This document shows, one piece after another, positions 13,321-51,782 of a stretch of DNA of 64,000 bases. Position numbers and translations under genes: made by a program. Under the pieces are notes generated by a model. The model was not told where the DNA came from. It made no database searches and worked only from the letters and a program-made list of their open reading frames with translations. This DNA is from Candidatus Wolframiiraptor gerlachensis (GTDB lineage Archaea; Thermoproteota; Nitrososphaeria_A; Caldarchaeales; Wolframiiraptoraceae). Numbering within the stretch: the stretch's first letter is position 1; each line of letters starts with the position of its first letter. The stretch is from positions 1 to 64,000 of the forward strand of contig JAJPCT020000017.1 in NCBI GenBank assembly GCA_021323375.2, read 5' to 3'.

Positions 13321-13992
13321 TTAAGGTTGCATATGGAAGCCAACCCTATCCTTAATCTTCTTGAAGAAGTTGCTTAGCGAGCCCGTGAGCTTGTCGACTG
13401 GAAAGCCGAGATCCGCTTCAAGATCCTCGAATTGCCCCTGATCGGCCTCGCTACTGGATTTGCCTCCGCGGATATACTTCAGCTCCATGGTCTCAATCCC
13501 CCTTAGCGTGCTCTCCAATAGCTTCTGCCTATGGATACCTATCGAGACTGGAATGGCCACCACCTCACCCTTCTGATTTATCCTGAAGACCTTGAAGCTG
13601 AGGTCCTGAAGCCTCCTCGTCCTCGCATATTTTAGGGGATCTATCACAAGCGCCACGGCCTTTGGGAAGAGCCTCTGGTAAAGCTTCTGGGTCTCAATGT
13701 CTATTGCCGAGAGGAATACATCGAAACCCGGGTGAGAGTGATACCATCCGACGATGTATAGGCCGGGCCTATTCCTGAGAACCCACTCCGCCGCCGCGGC
13801 GATCGTCTCCTCCTCCAGATAGACGAAGCCGGGCGTCGACTTCTGCTCGCCCGTTATGGTATCCCAGATCTCAAGCACATCACCCCTCTTCAAGTATTTC
13901 CCCACGAGAAGCCCTGCAACCTCCCTATTCAGGTCATCAAGAGCGTGTTTTATCATCTTACCAAGCGCCAGCGGATAAACCCTAACCTTCAT
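13321..13992 (-). CDS. rpn11: Rpn11-like JAMM/MPN+ deubiquitinase
   Basis: EVAGLLVG, GWYHSHPGFDVFLSAID, ALVIDP; divergent from ubiquitin. Confidence 0.92.
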   Translation of the reverse strand: MKVRVYPLALGKMIKHALDDLNREVAGLLVGKYLKRGDVLEIWDTITGEQKSTPGFVYLEEETIAAAAEWVLRNRPGLYIVGWYHSHPGFDVFLSAIDIETQKLYQRLFPKAVALVIDPLKYARTRRLQDLSFKVFRINQKGEVVAIPVSIGIHRQKLLESTLRGIETMELKYIRGGKSSSEADQGQFEDLEADLGFPVDKLTGSLSNFFKKIKDRVGFHMQP

Positions 13993-14429: not shown

Positions 14430-14666
14430 ATGAAGATTAGGATCGTCCCCGCTGTGGGAGGGGGTAATCCCATAGAATTAGAGGTCTCACCTTCCACGAC
14501 TATAGGAGCTATTAGGGCTAAGGTCTGCGCCATGAAGAAGCTTCCACCAGATACGACGAGGCTCACATACAGGGGCAGGGCGCTCAAGGATACGGAAACC
14601 CTCGAATCGATAGGAGTCCAGGATGGGGACAAGCTCATATTGATAACTAGGACTGTGGGCGGATAA
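14430..14666 (+). CDS. eukaryote-like ubiquitin (78 aa, ends at GG)
   Basis: MKIRIVPAVGGG..RLTYRGRALKDTETLESIGVQDGDKLILITRTVGG; followed by E2, E1, RING. Confidence 0.95.
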   Translation: MKIRIVPAVGGGNPIELEVSPSTTIGAIRAKVCAMKKLPPDTTRLTYRGRALKDTETLESIGVQDGDKLILITRTVGG

Positions 14667-14744: not shown

Positions 14745-15224
14745 TTGAAAACGCAGCTCCCCGAGGCTCTGTGGAGCAGGAGACTGGCGCTAGAGTATAA
14801 GCTGATGAGGGAGAATGAGCCTACATTCGACATAGTGGATAATCAGCTGACGCATTACCGTGGAGTGATAATTGGTGAGGGCCTGTATGAGGGTGGATTC
14901 TTCAAGGTGGAGATAATTGTCCCGCGCACATTCCCGTATACTCCTCCCGATGTTATCTGGTGGACGAGGATATGGCATCCAAACTTCACGGACGAGGTTC
15001 CCGCGAGGATCTGCGAGTCGATATTCAAGAATGATTGGAGCCCCTCGCTCCACCTCTTCTCAGTCGTCGAGGCTTTGAGGAATCTGCTCAATAATCCGAA
15101 TCCCGATGATCCTCTAAACACGTTCGCCGCTGCTGAGATGAAGTATAGGCCGGATATCTTCGAGGCTAGAGTTAGGGCGTATATTGAGCTATACGCTAGG
15201 CCGGAGTATGCCTTCCAGGAGTAG
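14745..15224 (+). CDS. ubiquitin-conjugating enzyme E2
   Basis: YEGGFFKV, FPYTPP, IWHPN, catalytic Cys in RICES, WSPS, PNPDDPLN. Confidence 0.95.
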   Translation: MKTQLPEALWSRRLALEYKLMRENEPTFDIVDNQLTHYRGVIIGEGLYEGGFFKVEIIVPRTFPYTPPDVIWWTRIWHPNFTDEVPARICESIFKNDWSPSLHLFSVVEALRNLLNNPNPDDPLNTFAAAEMKYRPDIFEARVRAYIELYARPEYAFQE

Positions 15225-15282: not shown

Positions 15283-16476
15283 ATGACCGAGAAGCAAGGC
15301 GGCCTCGAGCGATATGATCGGCAGTTAAGGATCGTGGGATGGGATCAGGAGAATCTTAGCAGGGCCAGGGTCGTCGTGGTGGGAGTTGGCGCCACGGGAT
15401 GCGAGGTCTCAAAAAACCTCGCGTTAATGGGCATTGGAAAGCTCATCCTAGTAGATAATGACGTGATCGAGCTATCAAATCTAAGCAGGCAGATGCTCTT
15501 CCTAGATGAGGATATAGGTAAGCCCAAGGCCATCGTTGCAGCTAATAGGCTGAGGAGGATGAACCCGCTTATAGAGGTTGAGCCATACTTCGAGGACGTT
15601 AGAAGTCTCGACGAATCAATCTTCGAGGGGGCTGACATCATAGTATCATGCCTTGATAACTGGCCTGTTAGGAGGTGGCTCAACTCGCTCGCGGTGGAGC
15701 TGGATAAGCCGCTCGTGGATGTCGCGATGGAAGGATTCTACGCTAATCTTCAAGTCGTGATCCCGAGGAAGACCGCGTGCTTGGAATGTCATGGGGAGGA
15801 TCTGATACCAAAGGAGACGCAGCTCGCCGAATGCACGCTGAGGAGGAGAAGGCCTGAGGACCTCGTTCAAGACCTGAAGCAGGCGGGAATAAAGATAAGT
15901 CAGAAGATAGCAGAGAAGCTATTCGAACATGACATCAAGACAATTTATGATCTGAAGTATGCTCAGGAGGGCGTGTTAATGAAGCTGGATAAGAAGACAT
16001 TGGAGGTTGTTAGGAGGATTAGGGAGAGGCTGAAGCCGAAGCTTCCAGCACTTCAAAGCGTCGCCGCCATGATCTCGGGGCTAGCCTCAACAGAGATTGT
16101 GAAAATACTTCATGGAGATAGGCTCGGGGAGCCGATCAAGGGCCTTCTAGTATATGATGGTCTCGCGGGACAGTTCACGATCGTGGAGCTTGAGAGGAGC
16201 CCCGAATGCTTTGTCTGCGGAGATCTAGTCGAGGAAGGGCTGACGATCACGGTCAAGCCGGACGAGACCATTCTAGACCTGAAGAGGAGGATAGCAGAGA
16301 CATACAGCATCCCGGATCCCGAGATACTTTACCGGGAATGGAGGCTCCAGGACGATAAGAGGATCTTGGAGCTGGGAGTTAAGGAGGGCGATACACTATA
16401 TATCACCACTAGCAGGAGGTTCATGCCCCTTCAGCTAAGGGTTCAATTCCACAAGGAGGAGGTGATGGCTCCATGA
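15283..16476 (+). CDS. ubiquitin-activating enzyme E1 with C-terminal ubiquitin-fold domain
   Basis: RYDRQ, GVGATG, SNLSRQ, CLDN, CLEC/CFVC, AECTL, then VKPDETILDLK..LGVKEGDTL. Confidence 0.93.
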   Translation: MTEKQGGLERYDRQLRIVGWDQENLSRARVVVVGVGATGCEVSKNLALMGIGKLILVDNDVIELSNLSRQMLFLDEDIGKPKAIVAANRLRRMNPLIEVEPYFEDVRSLDESIFEGADIIVSCLDNWPVRRWLNSLAVELDKPLVDVAMEGFYANLQVVIPRKTACLECHGEDLIPKETQLAECTLRRRRPEDLVQDLKQAGIKISQKIAEKLFEHDIKTIYDLKYAQEGVLMKLDKKTLEVVRRIRERLKPKLPALQSVAAMISGLASTEIVKILHGDRLGEPIKGLLVYDGLAGQFTIVELERSPECFVCGDLVEEGLTITVKPDETILDLKRRIAETYSIPDPEILYREWRLQDDKRILELGVKEGDTLYITTSRRFMPLQLRVQFHKEEVMAP

Positions 16477-16709
16477 GGAGGATAACGATATTAGAGGAGG
16501 AGAAAGCGGGCGAATGGGATCTCATGTTCGAGGAAGAGGGGAAGAAACTGGATGTATGCCCGGTCTGCTCCGCGGAGATACATGAGGGCGTCCCCGTATT
16601 CGAGTGCCCCTTCTGTGGAAACAAGATGCATGCTAGATGTGTCCAGCCATGGATAAATGAGAGGGGGACATGCCCAATCTGCAAAAGGCCTTTATCACAG
16701 AAAGCATAA
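16473..16709 (+). CDS. small RING finger E3 ligase
   Basis: C-x2-C-x12-C-x2-C-x4-H-x2-C..W..CPIC; start overlaps the E1 stop (ATGA). Confidence 0.9.
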   Translation: MRRITILEEEKAGEWDLMFEEEGKKLDVCPVCSAEIHEGVPVFECPFCGNKMHARCVQPWINERGTCPICKRPLSQKA

Positions 16710-16730: not shown

Positions 16731-17081
16731 TTGAGCAAGGCTGAGAATGGCGGCATAGTCCTAAAGCCGAAATACTTGGAGACGCCCAAGGGCAAGATCC
16801 CCACATATGATTTCGTGATGGGGTTGGCGAAGGCGATCAACATCCTCGACGAAGCTGTGGCGGAGCTTGAGGAGAAGATAAGGGGCATGACTCCGGCGAG
16901 CACGGCGGAGCTAAGCGACCTGAAGGCCAGGCTTGAAAGCGTCGAGGAGAGGTTGAAGAGCTTGGAGAAAAGGCTAGAGGTAGAGCTAGAGGATCTTAAC
17001 GACAAGCTGATGACCTTGACCGATGTGGTCCATGAGCTTGCTGAGAGGGTTCAGAGGCTTGAGGAGAGCATTAGGGGCTGA
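16731..17081 (+). CDS. small coiled-coil protein at the end of the Ub operon
   Basis: GAGGTG RBS-like site, 21 nt after the RING gene; heptad repeats. Confidence 0.8.
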   Translation: MSKAENGGIVLKPKYLETPKGKIPTYDFVMGLAKAINILDEAVAELEEKIRGMTPASTAELSDLKARLESVEERLKSLEKRLEVELEDLNDKLMTLTDVVHELAERVQRLEESIRG

Positions 17082-17910
17082 CGACCGCGCGCCTCATCTC
17101 CGCGATCAGCTTCTCGAGGCTCGCCCGCTTATTCTCGAGATCCTTTACCTCAGCCTCGAGCCTCTTCTTCCGCTCCTCGAGCATGTTCAGCTCGCTTCTC
17201 AGCTGGAGGACCTTCCTCTCAAGCTCCTCAGCCGCCTCCTCCTTCTCTCTAAGCTTGGATAGCCCCTCCCTGAGCTCGGCCTCCTTCTTGAGGAGGCGCT
17301 CCATCCTTATCTCCCTTATCTTGAAGTCCCTGAGAAAGCCCTTGAACATGTTCTCAAGCCTGTTTCCCAGCTCCTCGAGCCCCTTGAGATATCTGTTCTC
17401 AAGTTCCGAGATCTTGCGTTCGAGGTCAAGCTTCTTTTCCTCAAGAGCCCTTAGCTCGGCTTCCCTCATCGCCAGCTCCCTCTCCTTCGCGTCGAGATCA
17501 TTTCCCCATTTCCTCAGCTCCTGCCTGATCACAGCGAGCTCGCTCTTCTCCCTTAATAACGCCTCTATCTCCCTCTTTATCGCCTCGCGCTCCTTGCTCA
17601 AGGCCTCGATAATATCCTTCAGGCCCTCTTGGATGGAGAGAAGCGTGTTTTCATAGAACCTGACTTGATCAAGCTCCTCCGAGACCTTCTCGGCCTTCTC
17701 GAGAAAGATCGCGAGCTTTGATCTTATGGTCTCCGGCTGTGAGGCTAATGTCCCGAGAAGAGCTTGAATCTCCATGAGCCTAGACTCAAGCCTCTTCAAC
17801 ACCTCATTAAGGGGCGCTACACTCGCGGAGATTCTCTGCTCGAATTTGTTTAACCTTTCCTCAATCTTATCCTCAAGCTCCTCAACCTTCTTCCCGCCAA
17901 ATAGCGACAT
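17071..17910 (-). CDS. long coiled-coil protein
   Basis: Continuous E/K/L heptads; likely start ATG 17910 (MSLFGGKK). Confidence 0.8.
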   Translation of the reverse strand: MSLFGGKKVEELEDKIEERLNKFEQRISASVAPLNEVLKRLESRLMEIQALLGTLASQPETIRSKLAIFLEKAEKVSEELDQVRFYENTLLSIQEGLKDIIEALSKEREAIKREIEALLREKSELAVIRQELRKWGNDLDAKERELAMREAELRALEEKKLDLERKISELENRYLKGLEELGNRLENMFKGFLRDFKIREIRMERLLKKEAELREGLSKLREKEEAAEELERKVLQLRSELNMLEERKKRLEAEVKDLENKRASLEKLIAEMRRAVVSP

Positions 17911-18061
17911 TTCTGGACAAGAACCTTTCAAAGTGTTATAAAAAGTTGATTCACCCTTTGGCCATAGTCTCCACATCCCCGTGTTACGAGCTGTTTATAA
18001 GGCGGGAGAACCGAGGCACTAGGGGGCTTGTGCGAGGTTGCTCACGACTAGAGAGGAGGTA

Positions 18062-18760
18062 ATGTCTAGGCTGTATAAGATCGGGTCAATCGCAGCGGCT
18101 ATGGGGGCGATTCACATCCTTACACTCCTCCTAAGCTGGTATGTCCAAGTAATAGATGGCACTGAGAAGAGTGTTCAGGGCCTCGTAAGCCCCTACGCGA
18201 CGATGATGTCTCTTGTCGGCGGGATCCTAGCCGGCATCGGCGTAGTCGTCATCCACTTCATCAAGGGGCTTAGGGCGATGAAGAATATTCTGGGGGTCTC
18301 GATAATCGCGGGAGGCCTCCTCGCCGCGATCTCGCCAATCTACTCCTACTGGTTCTGGCTCCTAGAGCTATCAAGCTACTCTAGGTTCGATCTCGGGTTC
18401 TTCGCGGCCACCTTCACCGGAGTTATCCTCCTAGCCGTAGGAGCCCTAGCGCTCCTCACGCCCGTAAAAGAGGAGGTCATCCCATCGGCATTCACGGCAA
18501 TGCCGCCAGCCGGGCCGGAGCTCATGGAGGTTGGGGGTGCAGCTCCAAGCCCAAGCAGGCCTGCGACCACTAGGATAGTCCCGGCGCCAGATGTTGCAGA
18601 GGCGATATGCAGCATATGCTTTGACTTCATACCGGAGGGTGAGGCCATGAGATGTAGCAACTGTGATGCAATATTTCATAAGGGATGCATAGACTCTTGG
18701 GTAAGTATTAATGGGATATGCCCCAGCTGTAAGGCCATTGTTACAGATAGGGAGGGCTAA
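18062..18760 (+). CDS. 4-TM membrane protein with C-terminal RING (putative membrane E3 ligase)
   Basis: Four hydrophobic segments, Pro-rich linker, CSIC-x11-CSNC-x4-H-x2-C..W..CPSC. Confidence 0.85.
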   Translation: MSRLYKIGSIAAAMGAIHILTLLLSWYVQVIDGTEKSVQGLVSPYATMMSLVGGILAGIGVVVIHFIKGLRAMKNILGVSIIAGGLLAAISPIYSYWFWLLELSSYSRFDLGFFAATFTGVILLAVGALALLTPVKEEVIPSAFTAMPPAGPELMEVGGAAPSPSRPATTRIVPAPDVAEAICSICFDFIPEGEAMRCSNCDAIFHKGCIDSWVSINGICPSCKAIVTDREG

Positions 18761-18790
18761 GAGCTATTAAAAGACTAATATAACGGTAGA

Positions 18791-21033: not shown

Positions 21034-21588
21034 ATGGCTGTGGAGACTGTTAGAGCCGAGCTCGTTCAGGGGAACATAATAGTCTGGGACATTGAGAAGG
21101 GAAGAAAGCTGTATAGGCTAGGGTTCTATGGTAAGCCTCTCGGGATTCCCAAGCCGAAGTCCGCTGACTTCAATGCACCCCTCGTGCTGGATATAATTGA
21201 GGCGGTGTATCTCGTAGAGGAGGGGCTACTGGAAGTATACGAGGATGGGAGAAAGCTGACCTTAGACGAGCTGAAGGAGCATGCCGAAAAGACCTATGAG
21301 AACTTCAGGGAAAAGTATCAGGTGTATAGGGATCTTAGGAAGAGGGGATTCATCGTGACACCAGGGATAAAGTTTGGAAGCGACTTCGCGGTCTACCGCG
21401 TGGGACCCGGCCTTGAGCATGCACCCTTCATAGTCCAAGTCAAGCTACTCGGAGAAAATATCTCGGCCTTAGAGATAGTCAGGTCGGGGAGGCTCGCGAC
21501 AACCGTTAAGAAATATTTCACGATCGCTGTTCCGGATCGATCAGGTGAAAAGCCCACTTACATCCTCTTTGAGTGGTGGCGTGCGTAG
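21034..21588 (+). CDS. endA: tRNA splicing endonuclease catalytic subunit
   Basis: VYRDLRKRG, GIKFGSDFAVY, EHAPF, GRLATTVKK; GFYGKPLGIPKPK loop. Confidence 0.93.
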   Translation: MAVETVRAELVQGNIIVWDIEKGRKLYRLGFYGKPLGIPKPKSADFNAPLVLDIIEAVYLVEEGLLEVYEDGRKLTLDELKEHAEKTYENFREKYQVYRDLRKRGFIVTPGIKFGSDFAVYRVGPGLEHAPFIVQVKLLGENISALEIVRSGRLATTVKKYFTIAVPDRSGEKPTYILFEWWRA

Positions 21589-51684: not shown

Positions 51685-51782
51685 GCCCCGGTAGCTCAGC
51701 CCGGTTAGAGCGCCCGCTTGGTACCCCCTCGTGAGAGGGGCCTGAGAGCGGGAGGCCGCGGGTTCAAAGCCCGCCCGGGGCT
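51685..51782 (+). tRNA. tRNA-Thr(GGU) with a 23-nt intron at 37/38 (51724-51746)
   Basis: GCCCCGG/CCGGGGC acceptor, CCCGC/GCGGG anticodon stem, GGT at 51720-22, GGTTCAAA T-loop, U discriminator. Confidence 0.93.

Follow-up and report, generated by a model that had tools for sequence, protein, structure and literature searches.

The gene that most likely spans positions 18038-18760 (+ strand) of the window, by which we mean the whole 64,000-nucleotide stretch analysed here from Candidatus Wolframiiraptor gerlachensis, probably encodes a RING ubiquitin ligase anchored in the membrane, which would be the second E3 in the eukaryote-like ubiquitin/E1/E2/Rpn11 system of its order, Caldarchaeales; from sequence comparison, we put the probability of this reading at about 0.6. 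Its product is predicted to carry, on a cytoplasmic tail, a RING of the type of the proven ligase encoded next door, so that a second, membrane-bound ligase is probable. A sequence-only reading had placed the gene at 18062-18760. The open frame and its stop at 18760 were confirmed, but the start had to be moved. The ATG at 18062, which gives a 232-aa product, is poorly kept (ATG in 4/10 relatives in a DNA alignment), whereas a TTG at 18038-18040, which gives 240 aa, is invariant in 10/10, and more distant orthologues have an N-terminal extension of 8-11 residues. Therefore, the coding sequence most likely begins at the TTG; residues are nevertheless numbered here from the ATG at 18062. The heptamer TTTATAA (17994-18000, + strand), located 38 nt upstream of the TTG, where a divergent spacer separates a 301-aa coiled-coil gene from the membrane-RING gene, is kept in 9/10 aligned relatives and is a putative, TATA-like promoter element. 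The family to which the protein belongs comprises 31 protein clusters of 219-249 aa.

We located the transmembrane (TM) segments by Kyte-Doolittle hydropathy, using 19-residue windows and a threshold of 1.4. Four hydrophobic segments exceed it, at about residues 7-29, 45-67, 75-99 and 111-134, in agreement with the four helices read earlier. TM1 (18080-18148; this and all following parts of the protein are on the + strand) contains H18, kept in 30/31 relatives, and ends with W26-Y27 (W in 31/31, Y in 26/31), the W-Y pair that had been noticed after this helix. TM2 (18194-18262) holds S50 (31/31) and a small-residue motif, G53-G54-x2-A57-G58, and TM3 (18284-18358) holds G84-G85, S91 (31/31) and P92 (30/31). 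TM4 (18392-18463) opens, as had also been described, with a GFF motif, G112-F113-F114, conserved in 31/31, 21/31 and 28/31 relatives, respectively. The linker that follows (18464-18601, residues 135-180) is rich in Pro, Thr, Ser and Ala; with 9 prolines in 46 residues it deserves the name Pro-rich, and it varies among relatives both in sequence and in length (35-80 residues).

Both termini of the protein, and hence the RING, are predicted to lie in the cytoplasm. The positive-inside rule is the established basis for reading topology from charge, and we counted K+R against D+E over the 31 sequences: 74/45 for the N-terminus and 96/1 for loop 2-3 (KGLRAMK in the window, 18263-18283), the putative inside parts, and 15/44 for loop 1-2 and 26/43 for loop 3-4, the putative outside parts. 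Since these counts put the N-terminus and loop 2-3 inside, the RING would be cytoplasmic and not extracellular; the charge of loop 2-3 is the main determinant of this N-in/C-in topology. Against a cytoplasmic ligase it can be said that extracellular proteins of archaea often have Pro/Thr-rich linkers.

The membrane domain is, as far as sequence comparison goes, without match outside the membrane-RING family. The claudin-like layout proposed for it did not hold: 16 membrane domains searched against Pfam gave no claudin/PMP22 match, and no recurrent family of any kind, at E<=5. Claudins have a long first outside loop with a W-GLW-C-C motif; the first outside loop is about 15 residues here, and loop 1-2 of the family has 13-16 residues and no Cys. 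NCBIfam gave no match to the domain. A profile of it run against 1.84 billion representatives gave 14 matches at E<=1e-10, all from its own family, and three weak matches beyond it (P0047, P0048 and P0050). P0047 and P0050 have the appearance of 4-TM proteins from bacteria, and P0048 (E 2e-4), which also carries a RING of identical spacing, is a singleton with no relatives by search and none in a metagenome scan. In the ESM Atlas, residues 1-145 of P0016 gave a best score of 0.78, to be taken as a lead only, and P0015 returned just the family's own two clusters.

The RING itself (18608-18733, C183 to K224) has the ligands C183, C186, C198, C201, H206, C209, C220 and C223, a C4HC3 order with the spacing C-x2-C-x11-C-x2-C-x4-H-x2-C-x10-C-x2-C. 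It matches Pfam zf-RING_2 with 36 bits (cut-off 27.3), and in the whole-genome scan the same model scored 39.6 bits over exactly 18608-18733. All eight ligands are invariant in the 31/31 aligned relatives, an alignment that excludes cluster P0012 (22 member sequences), in which R replaces the eighth ligand, the last Cys. A profile of the 31 members searched against the PDB matched 63 sequences at E<=0.01, the best of which are RING-H2 E3s: ZNRF3 (1.9e-12) and Arkadia (6e-12), with RNF165, ZNRF1, RLIM, RNF38, EL5, RNF13, synoviolin/HRD1 and AMFR further down. About 20 distinct RING-H2 ligases are found at E<=2e-8 and 8 at <=3e-10; judged by this profile, RING-H2 ligases are the closest solved relatives of the RING. 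Several of them are membrane ligases of the same build. Hrd1/synoviolin, gp78/AMFR, ZNRF3/RNF43, RNF13 and ATL (EL5) also consist of one or more TM segments, a cytosolic linker and a C-terminal RING, and eukaryotic RING-H2 membrane ligases share the I/W/P pattern of E2 contacts and the C-P-x-C-K/R ending; for ZNRF3 and synoviolin the match is not confined to the RING but begins in the last TM helix and spans the linker as well. The archaeal protein differs from them in its fourth ligand, a Cys within C-x2-C-x4-H where RING-H2 domains have C-x-H-x2-H, in a membrane domain unrelated to theirs, and in a host that has no endomembranes.

Two other assignments of the Cys/His domain were considered. 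The parallel first drawn with the eukaryotic MARCH/Doa10 ligases had to be given up at the level of the domain: RING-CH (RINGv) spacing is C-x-C-x7-H, while the third and fourth Cys are here 2 residues apart and the His follows after 4 (C-x2-C-x4-H); RINGv is absent among the 13 Pfam families that match at E<=0.1; and the PDB search, which gave RING-H2 ligases, contains no MARCH/Doa10 chain at E<=0.01. In addition, the RING of MARCH/Doa10 precedes the TM helices and that of the archaeal protein is C-terminal. What they have in common is the C4HC3 order, attachment to the membrane and a proposed role in the fate of membrane proteins. Very improbably, the domain could instead belong to the PHD or C1 type and, at the inner face of the membrane, have a peptide mark or a lipid head group as its ligand in place of an E2. 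Its inner spacing, C-x2-C-x4-H-x2-C, is the signature of PHD and C1 domains, Pfam gives weak matches to C1_1 (22.8 bits) and PHD (16.4 bits), and PKC C1 domains appear in the PDB search at E of about 2e-3. However, both scores fall under their cut-offs (26.5 and 24), the PHD match covering model positions 1-33 of 47, whereas zf-RING_2 exceeds its own; against the score of RING-H2 ligases just given, no PHD chain is matched at E<=0.01. C1 domains have an N-terminal His ligand, which is missing here (the 13 residues preceding C183 contain no His), and the C-P-x-C at the end, with W-x6 before it, is RING-like. Lastly, a paralogue of identical spacing, srfp, is described as an active E3 (PMC5654768).

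This paralogue, the small RING finger protein (srfp, 16473-16709, + strand), is encoded in the same cluster, its ATG overlapping the E1 stop. The membrane RING had been credited with the ligand order, Trp and post-Cys Lys of srfp, and we found the same: the spacing is identical, and W213 and K224 are present in both. The ligand motif printed for C. subterraneum srfp equals that of the window RING letter for letter (PMC3082918). A BLASTP alignment with the srfp of locus L034 (E 5e-9, 26% identity) sets I185, W213 and K224 opposite srfp I30, W58 and R69, residues whose mutation is reported to abolish or impair ubiquitylation in vitro (PMC5654768); P-Y and P-S motifs of the E2 were mutated in that work too. 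Within the membrane-RING family, the residues predicted to contact E2 are well kept (I185 in 28/31, with L in 3; W213 in 30/31; P221 in 31/31); isoleucine occupies the I185 position in 16/16 membrane RINGs compared, and I or V the equivalent position in 9/11 srfp. In a tree, membrane RINGs and srfp fall on two sides of one branch, with weak support (47/63). The membrane-RING protein thus resembles srfp (CSUB_C1477 in the ubiquitin operon of Caldiarchaeum subterraneum) in ligand order, spacing and mutagenised positions, as well as in gene cluster and taxonomic range. They differ in that srfp, with 57-89 aa, is soluble and lacks the 4-TM domain and long linker of the membrane-RING protein, and in the linchpin position after the last Cys. 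Lysine stands there in the window and in 22/31 membrane-RING relatives (G in 6, Q in 2, N in 1), compared with K or R in 10/11 srfp; the orthologues of family f2 have G, and one of them, that of L034, also has Y for W213.

The linchpin bears on a second explanation, an unlikely one in our estimate, according to which the RING is non-catalytic and the protein, as a receptor or scaffold, brings srfp, E2 or ubiquitylated proteins to the membrane, perhaps together with the coiled-coil proteins of the cluster, like the inactive RING of eukaryotic pairs. A linchpin K/R is missing in 9/31 members of a family whose soluble counterpart keeps it in 10/11, the eighth ligand is lost in cluster P0012, and, where the gene cluster is split, the membrane-RING gene is found with srfp and the coiled-coil genes. 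Moreover, the gene may be missing from an otherwise intact ubiquitin system: in G063, a congeneric genome that is 95% complete and whose assembly contains a gap, the expected locus cleanly lacks it, homology to the window stopping at 18003 and resuming near 18768, and the membrane domain occurs nowhere in the assembly, while ubiquitin, E2, E1, srfp and both coiled-coil genes are retained at 91-99% identity. On the other hand, I185, W213 and P221 are kept at least as well as in srfp, and many eukaryotic RINGs are active although they have no classical linchpin. In addition, no dimerisation helices flank the RING; its flank is the variable Pro-rich linker.

We then turn from the protein to its neighbours. 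The cluster in the window comprises an Rpn11-like JAMM protease (13321-13992, - strand; Pfam JAB, 67 bits), ubiquitin (14430-14666, + strand; Pfam ubiquitin, 53.8 bits; 78 aa from a conserved MKI start, ending in RTVGG before the stop), an E2 (14745-15224, + strand; UQ_con, 100.5 bits), an E1 with a C-terminal ubiquitin-like domain (15283-16476, + strand; ThiF, 215.6 bits; ubiquitin, 28.8 bits over residues 320-376), srfp, and two coiled-coil proteins. One of these, cc116 (16731-17081, + strand), directly follows srfp, has 116 aa and contains a conserved N-terminal TP(K/R)GK motif; the other, cc301 (17071-17976, - strand), is a 301-aa frame divergent from the membrane-RING gene, for which the lengths of its orthologues (277-285 aa) point to a start at 17910 instead. 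The membrane-RING gene lies 1.3 kb after srfp, and these two genes encode the only RINGs found by the scan of the organism's own genome. The usual block is srfp, coiled-coil, coiled-coil, membrane-RING beside Ub-E2-E1. The genes for srfp, cc116 and cc301 stand just upstream of the membrane-RING gene at 15/19 public loci, the other 4 being cut by a contig end, and the same synteny is found in 11/15 genus representatives, with 2 cut and 2, from one genus, separate. In three genera of family f3 the srfp-cc116-cc301-membrane-RING block is intact and Ub-E2-E1-JAMM is relocated; in genus g11 the membrane-RING gene is apart from both srfp and Ub-E2-E1. The most constant neighbour of the membrane-RING gene is glycyl-tRNA synthetase and, as this is a housekeeping gene, part of the synteny may be inertia.

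Matches that include the membrane domain occur in 72/76 genomes of the order, over 4 families and 15 genera (counted from match rows; the class-level search covers the identical 76 genomes), and an E2 in 75/76. The co-occurrence with ubiquitin operons that was to be expected is thus observed, with a complete Ub/E1/E2/JAMM set, mostly adjacent; all these genomes belong to one clade, and the co-occurrence counts are therefore not independent. Among 337 sampled genomes of the phylum outside the order, the membrane domain was found in 0 and the RING part only in 4. One genome from another family of the phylum, G326, encodes, beside a FlaI/VirB11-like ATPase, a multi-TM protein of 312 aa whose RING has a similar pattern; no E2 match was obtained in that genome, and a membrane RING in an archaeon is therefore not necessarily tied to ubiquitin. 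This last case supports a further alternative, namely that the protein is a membrane zinc-finger protein independent of ubiquitin, engaged for example in envelope, division or transport contacts, its proximity to the ubiquitin genes being inherited order. The adjacency of glycyl-tRNA synthetase, conserved at least as well as that of the ubiquitin genes, the separate gene of g11 and a membrane domain that matches no known family agree with such a role. We nonetheless consider it improbable. The RING is of the unusual subtype of the proven E3 next door and keeps that protein's three tested residues; the two RING lines lie on either side of one branch, with the weak support already mentioned (47/63); the order-wide range is common to the family (72/76) and to full-length E2 (75/76); and, outside the order, RING-like matches come from 4 genomes and E2-like matches from 8 different ones.

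Taken together, the polytopic domain, an srfp-type RING predicted on the cytoplasmic side, co-occurrence with ubiquitin, E1, E2 and JAMM genes, and the retention of the residues tested in srfp make the candidate membrane E3 of the sequence-only reading a fair description. As a membrane-bound ligase, the protein would consist of a lineage-specific four-helix bundle embedded in the cytoplasmic membrane, its two ends facing the cytoplasm, and a flexible Pro-rich tether of 35-80 residues carrying a two-zinc cross-brace RING. I185, W213 and P221 would form the contact between the RING and the operon's E2~Ub, and K224, in this organism, may help to hold E2~Ub in a closed, reactive state, from which ubiquitin would pass to lysines of membrane or membrane-proximal proteins. 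Substrates may be chosen by the membrane domain, with H18, S50 and S91-P92 as candidate residues, and/or by the two coiled-coil proteins whose genes lie between the two RING genes, and with which the membrane-RING protein may form a complex. A bolder version, which we regard as doubtful, is that srfp, the 116-aa coiled-coil protein, the ~280-aa coiled-coil protein and the membrane-RING protein make up one membrane-tethered ligase machine, whose orphan four-helix domain would read membrane proteins within the bilayer via H18, S50 and S91-P92, in an ERAD-like turnover or quality control that depends on ubiquitin and operates without endomembranes.

A second E3 protein beside the operon, called small, has already been mentioned, apparently without a description, by Fuchs et al. 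2018 (PMC6043591), in a main text from which the word 'membrane' is absent. That protein is very probably an orthologue of the membrane-RING protein, because in G012, a single-contig genome of the order, the only two RING matches are an srfp-like protein and a member of the membrane-RING family, about 1.3 kb apart. The portions of the open literature covered (PMC3082918, PMC5654768, PMC6043591, PMC6053391, PMC11354881, PMC11188069, PMC10547907, bioRxiv 10.1101/2023.07.25.550441 and PMC13328587) yielded no earlier description of a membrane-anchored archaeal RING, and in the portions covered PMC6043591 is the only one of these to mention the second E3. A prior record of the protein's TM segments may exist. 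Prokaryotic RING fingers were reportedly surveyed in 2011 by Burroughs, Iyer and Aravind.

That this archaeal group has a ubiquitin system has been known since 2010; the system is, to our knowledge, the simplest complete E1/E2/E3/DUB cascade outside eukaryotes. The novelty is accordingly smaller than had first been implied, the system being known and its second E3 already mentioned (PMC6043591). The published reconstitution used a foreign substrate, Rad50 (PMC5654768). If the system has a membrane-fixed second E3 throughout the order, the search for substrates would be directed to membrane or membrane-proximal proteins, and the protein would provide a tractable, thermostable model for the action of RING ligases at a membrane. 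Should the RING prove inactive, the membrane-RING protein would still be the first candidate membrane receptor of this ubiquitin system. The block of two RING and two coiled-coil genes, which remains intact when E1, E2 and ubiquitin move, offers a testable hypothesis of an archaeal multi-subunit ligase. The finding also bears on whether the ubiquitylation of membrane proteins, of the Hrd1-, Doa10- or MARCH-like kind, arose before endomembranes: if the four proteins do act as one ligase machine, it would predate the endomembranes of eukaryotes and exist outside Asgard archaea.

The gene under study encodes four transmembrane (TM) segments, a Pro-rich linker and a C-terminal RING, a layout that an earlier, sequence-only reading had described as a claudin-like tetraspan protein fused to a C4HC3 RING. 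The observation is real, although its claudin comparison is not supported, and the membrane-RING gene is under clear constraint. Hydropathy places the TM segments at residues 7-29, 45-67, 75-99 and 111-134, numbered from the ATG at 18062. The W-Y and GFF motifs pointed out in that reading recur in the 31 aligned relatives (alignment A3), with W26 and G112 present in all, Y27 in 26/31, F113 in 21/31 and F114 in 28/31. The linker has 46 residues, 9 of them Pro; in relatives it spans 35-80 residues and its sequence is poorly conserved. Since all 10 relatives in a DNA alignment keep a TTG at 18038 but only four keep the ATG at 18062, and since distant orthologues carry an N-terminal extension of 8-11 residues, the protein most likely comprises 240 aa. 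A TTTATAA 38 nt before the TTG is conserved as well.

Eight RING ligands (C183, C186, C198, C201, H206, C209, C220 and C223) are each found in 31/31 relatives, with the spacing C-x2-C-x11-C-x2-C-x4-H-x2-C-x10-C-x2-C. The motif printed for the small RING finger protein (srfp) of C. subterraneum has identical spacing (PMC3082918). In the Pfam scan of the protein, zf-RING_2 passed its cut-off of 27.3 with 36 bits; PHD and C1 stayed below their own cut-offs and RINGv was not listed. When all PDB chains were searched with a profile built from the 31 relatives, 63 sequences matched at E<=0.01. The best matches were RING-H2 ubiquitin ligases, led by ZNRF3 (1.9e-12) and Arkadia (6e-12), with RNF165/ARK2C, ZNRF1, RLIM, RNF38, EL5, RNF13, synoviolin/HRD1 and AMFR also near the top, and no PHD finger or MARCH/Doa10 chain occurred at that threshold. 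C1 domains appeared near 2e-3 only, and a PHD- or C1-like binding module is a very improbable description of this domain. It follows from these matches that the RING is, by sequence, a variant of the RING-H2 line common to it and srfp, and not a RING-CH: the C4HC3 ligand order stands as first read, whereas the proposed kinship with MARCH/Doa10 ligases falls away. One cluster of 22 member sequences (P0012), left out of A3, reads CPNRK where all other members have C-P-x-C-K, which puts Arg in the place of the eighth zinc ligand.

Hennell James et al. (PMC5654768) showed that ubiquitylation in vitro depends on srfp; the reaction is lost with I30Q and impaired by W58A or R69A. In the srfp of locus L034, residues 30, 58 and 69 are I, W and R, and BLASTP aligned the window's RING with this protein (E 5e-9, 26% identity), placing I185, W213 and K224 opposite these residues. 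Position 185 is I in 28/31 relatives and L in the other 3, W213 is kept in 30/31 and P221 in 31/31. After the last Cys, no more than 22/31 membrane RINGs have K (9 have G, Q or N), and 10/11 srfp sequences have K or R. The looser conservation of this position would suit a membrane protein that serves srfp as a receptor or partner without catalytic activity, an explanation we consider unlikely. A tree built on 27 RING domains (48 columns) splits membrane RINGs from srfp RINGs at one branch of weak support (47/63), which fits two old paralogues without proving them.

Over the 31 sequences, K+R/D+E counts were 74/45 for the N-terminus, 15/44 for loop 1-2, 96/1 for loop 2-3 and 26/43 for loop 3-4. 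Because these counts are read by the positive-inside rule, both termini, and hence the RING, are predicted to be cytoplasmic; this rule-based placement speaks against an extracellular RING, which the first reading had named as a point against its proposal.

Eukaryote-like ubiquitin clusters are well known in the former Aigarchaeota. ORF and Pfam analysis finds that cluster in the window: a JAMM/Rpn11-like gene (13321-13992, minus strand), ubiquitin (14430-14666), E2 (14745-15224; UQ_con, 100.5 bits), E1 (15283-16476; ThiF, 215.6 bits, with a ubiquitin-like domain at the C-terminus) and srfp (16473-16709; 78 aa). The E1 stop is overlapped by the srfp start codon in an ATGA (16473-16476), which suggests translational coupling. 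The window's ubiquitin is encoded in mature form, since RTVGG directly precedes the stop, and its activation would need no processing by the Rpn11-like protease; orthologues at L044 and L048 likewise end at GG, and those of other genera at L034, L035, L043, L045, L046 and L047 have tails of 2-10 residues beyond it. Between the two RING genes lie two coiled-coil genes, kept across the order: cc116 (16731-17081, plus strand; 116 aa) and the convergent cc301 (17071-17976, minus strand), which share 11 nt at their 3' ends. Judging from its orthologues, cc301 would start at 17910. Pfam and NCBIfam returned no real family match for either, only coiled-coil noise; in alignment A6 of cc116 relatives, the coiled coil is preceded by (L/I)x(Y/W)(L/V/I)(E/D)TP(K/R)GK, with T-P-x-G invariant. 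The membrane-RING open frame (18038-18760) diverges from cc301, and the glycyl-tRNA synthetase gene begins 30 nt past it. Elsewhere in the window are a putative tRNA-splicing-endonuclease-like ORF (21034-21588), so named from its sequence alone, and a tRNA (51685-51782, plus strand; Rfam 54.2 bits), which probably contains an intron, being 98 nt long against a 71-position model and missed by ARAGORN.

srfp, cc116 and cc301 are directly upstream of the membrane-RING gene in 15/19 public loci, the other 4 being cut by a contig end. The same order is found in 11/15 genus representatives; 2 are cut, and 2, both of genus g11, adjoin glycyl-tRNA synthetase only. In three genera of family f3, Ub-E2-E1(-JAMM) is located elsewhere, 87 kb off in G030, and the four genes from srfp to the membrane RING still form one block, which speaks for a functional 'E3 module'. 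The cluster of g11 is in three places, with srfp-cc301 apart from the membrane RING. These split arrangements were read at L038, L041, L042, L052, L053, L054 and L055, in genomes G019, G030, G037 and G022. At 277-279 aa the membrane-RING protein of g11 is longer, and its linker is acidic and has 73-80 residues. Besides the normal E2, this genus has a second, weaker UQ_con match of ~31-33 bits, which covers model positions 47-119 and lies within open frames of 274-288 aa ( G022:C2:193699-193947, G024:C29, G025:C1:95496, G026:C28 and G028:C23). Since no neighbour is more constant than glycyl-tRNA synthetase, the synteny probably reflects inherited gene order in part; all synteny and distribution evidence comes from one clade.

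The homologues retrieved fall into 31 clusters of 219-249 aa; every one has the RING, and annotation goes no further than 'hypothetical protein'. Within the order (76 genomes, also the whole class), matches including the membrane domain occur in 72/76 genomes by count of rows, covering 4 families and 15 genera, and E2 occurs in 75/76. Four genomes are without the membrane domain: one, 59% complete, is also without E2, and two (G066, G071) are fragmented assemblies in which contigs break off within the cluster, the G071 E2 being split over contig ends. In the congeneric G063 (95% complete), which shares Ub, E2, E1, srfp and both coiled-coil genes with the window at 91-99% identity, homology stops at 18003 and resumes near 18768, so that the membrane-RING gene is missing precisely from after the TATA box to the stop codon; the membrane domain matched nowhere else in this assembly. 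The AT-rich DNA found instead has no long ORF and contains short dispersed repeats, with ~100-nt stretches recurring at 72-80% identity elsewhere in G063, G075 and G000, and both contigs (C46:1-745, L056; C85:1-150, L058) end inside it; this may be gene loss or an assembly gap. In a phylum sample of 401 genomes at least 80% complete, none of the 337 outside the order matched the membrane domain. The RING part alone matched in 4/337, none with an E2 match, and E2-like matches occurred in 8/337, the two sets not overlapping. That this family is a zinc-finger membrane protein working independently of ubiquitin we hold improbable. Six of the eight E2-like matches are partial but above cut-off (G107, G135, G274, G279, G299 and G380; 59-67 bits, model positions 47-121, frames of 185-212 aa, no RING match) and may represent a different E2/UEV-like family. 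The 14 proteins that a membrane-domain-only profile matched at E<=1e-10 among 1.84 billion representatives are without exception family members (163-277 aa). The membrane domain is thus, as far as these profiles detect, an orphan found only fused to the membrane RING. A singleton on a 4.3-kb contig (P0048, 310 aa) has a weak membrane-domain match (E 2e-4), followed by a region resembling a coiled coil and by a RING whose spacing is identical to that of the membrane RING, and may be a distant family member from another lineage. In another family of the phylum, G326:C8 (L049:6272-7210) encodes a 312-aa multi-TM protein with a RING-like end (C-x2-C-x15-C-x2-C-x4-H-x2-C-x10-C-x2-C), directly before a 681-aa FlaI/VirB11-like ATPase gene; its membrane part did not match the membrane-RING family, and the genome has no E2 match.

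The ubiquitin system and a 'second E3' are already known. The cluster description of Nunoura et al. names five genes and calls other CDSs hypothetical (PMC3082918); the words 'transmembrane' and 'second RING' are not used by Hennell James et al. (PMC5654768), nor 'membrane' in the main text of Fuchs et al. (PMC6043591), who mention the 'second E3' next to the operon. Full-text searches of openly readable main texts turned up no account of an archaeal RING anchored in a membrane, and in that literature we did not find the membrane anchoring, the orphan 4-TM domain, the order-wide conservation or the four-gene block in print. Our best reading, to which we give a probability of roughly 0.6, is that the protein is a RING E3 tethered to the membrane and acting together with the E2 of the cluster. 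Such a protein, judging from a RING with conserved E2-contact residues, would bind E2, activate E2~Ub and act on membrane proteins.
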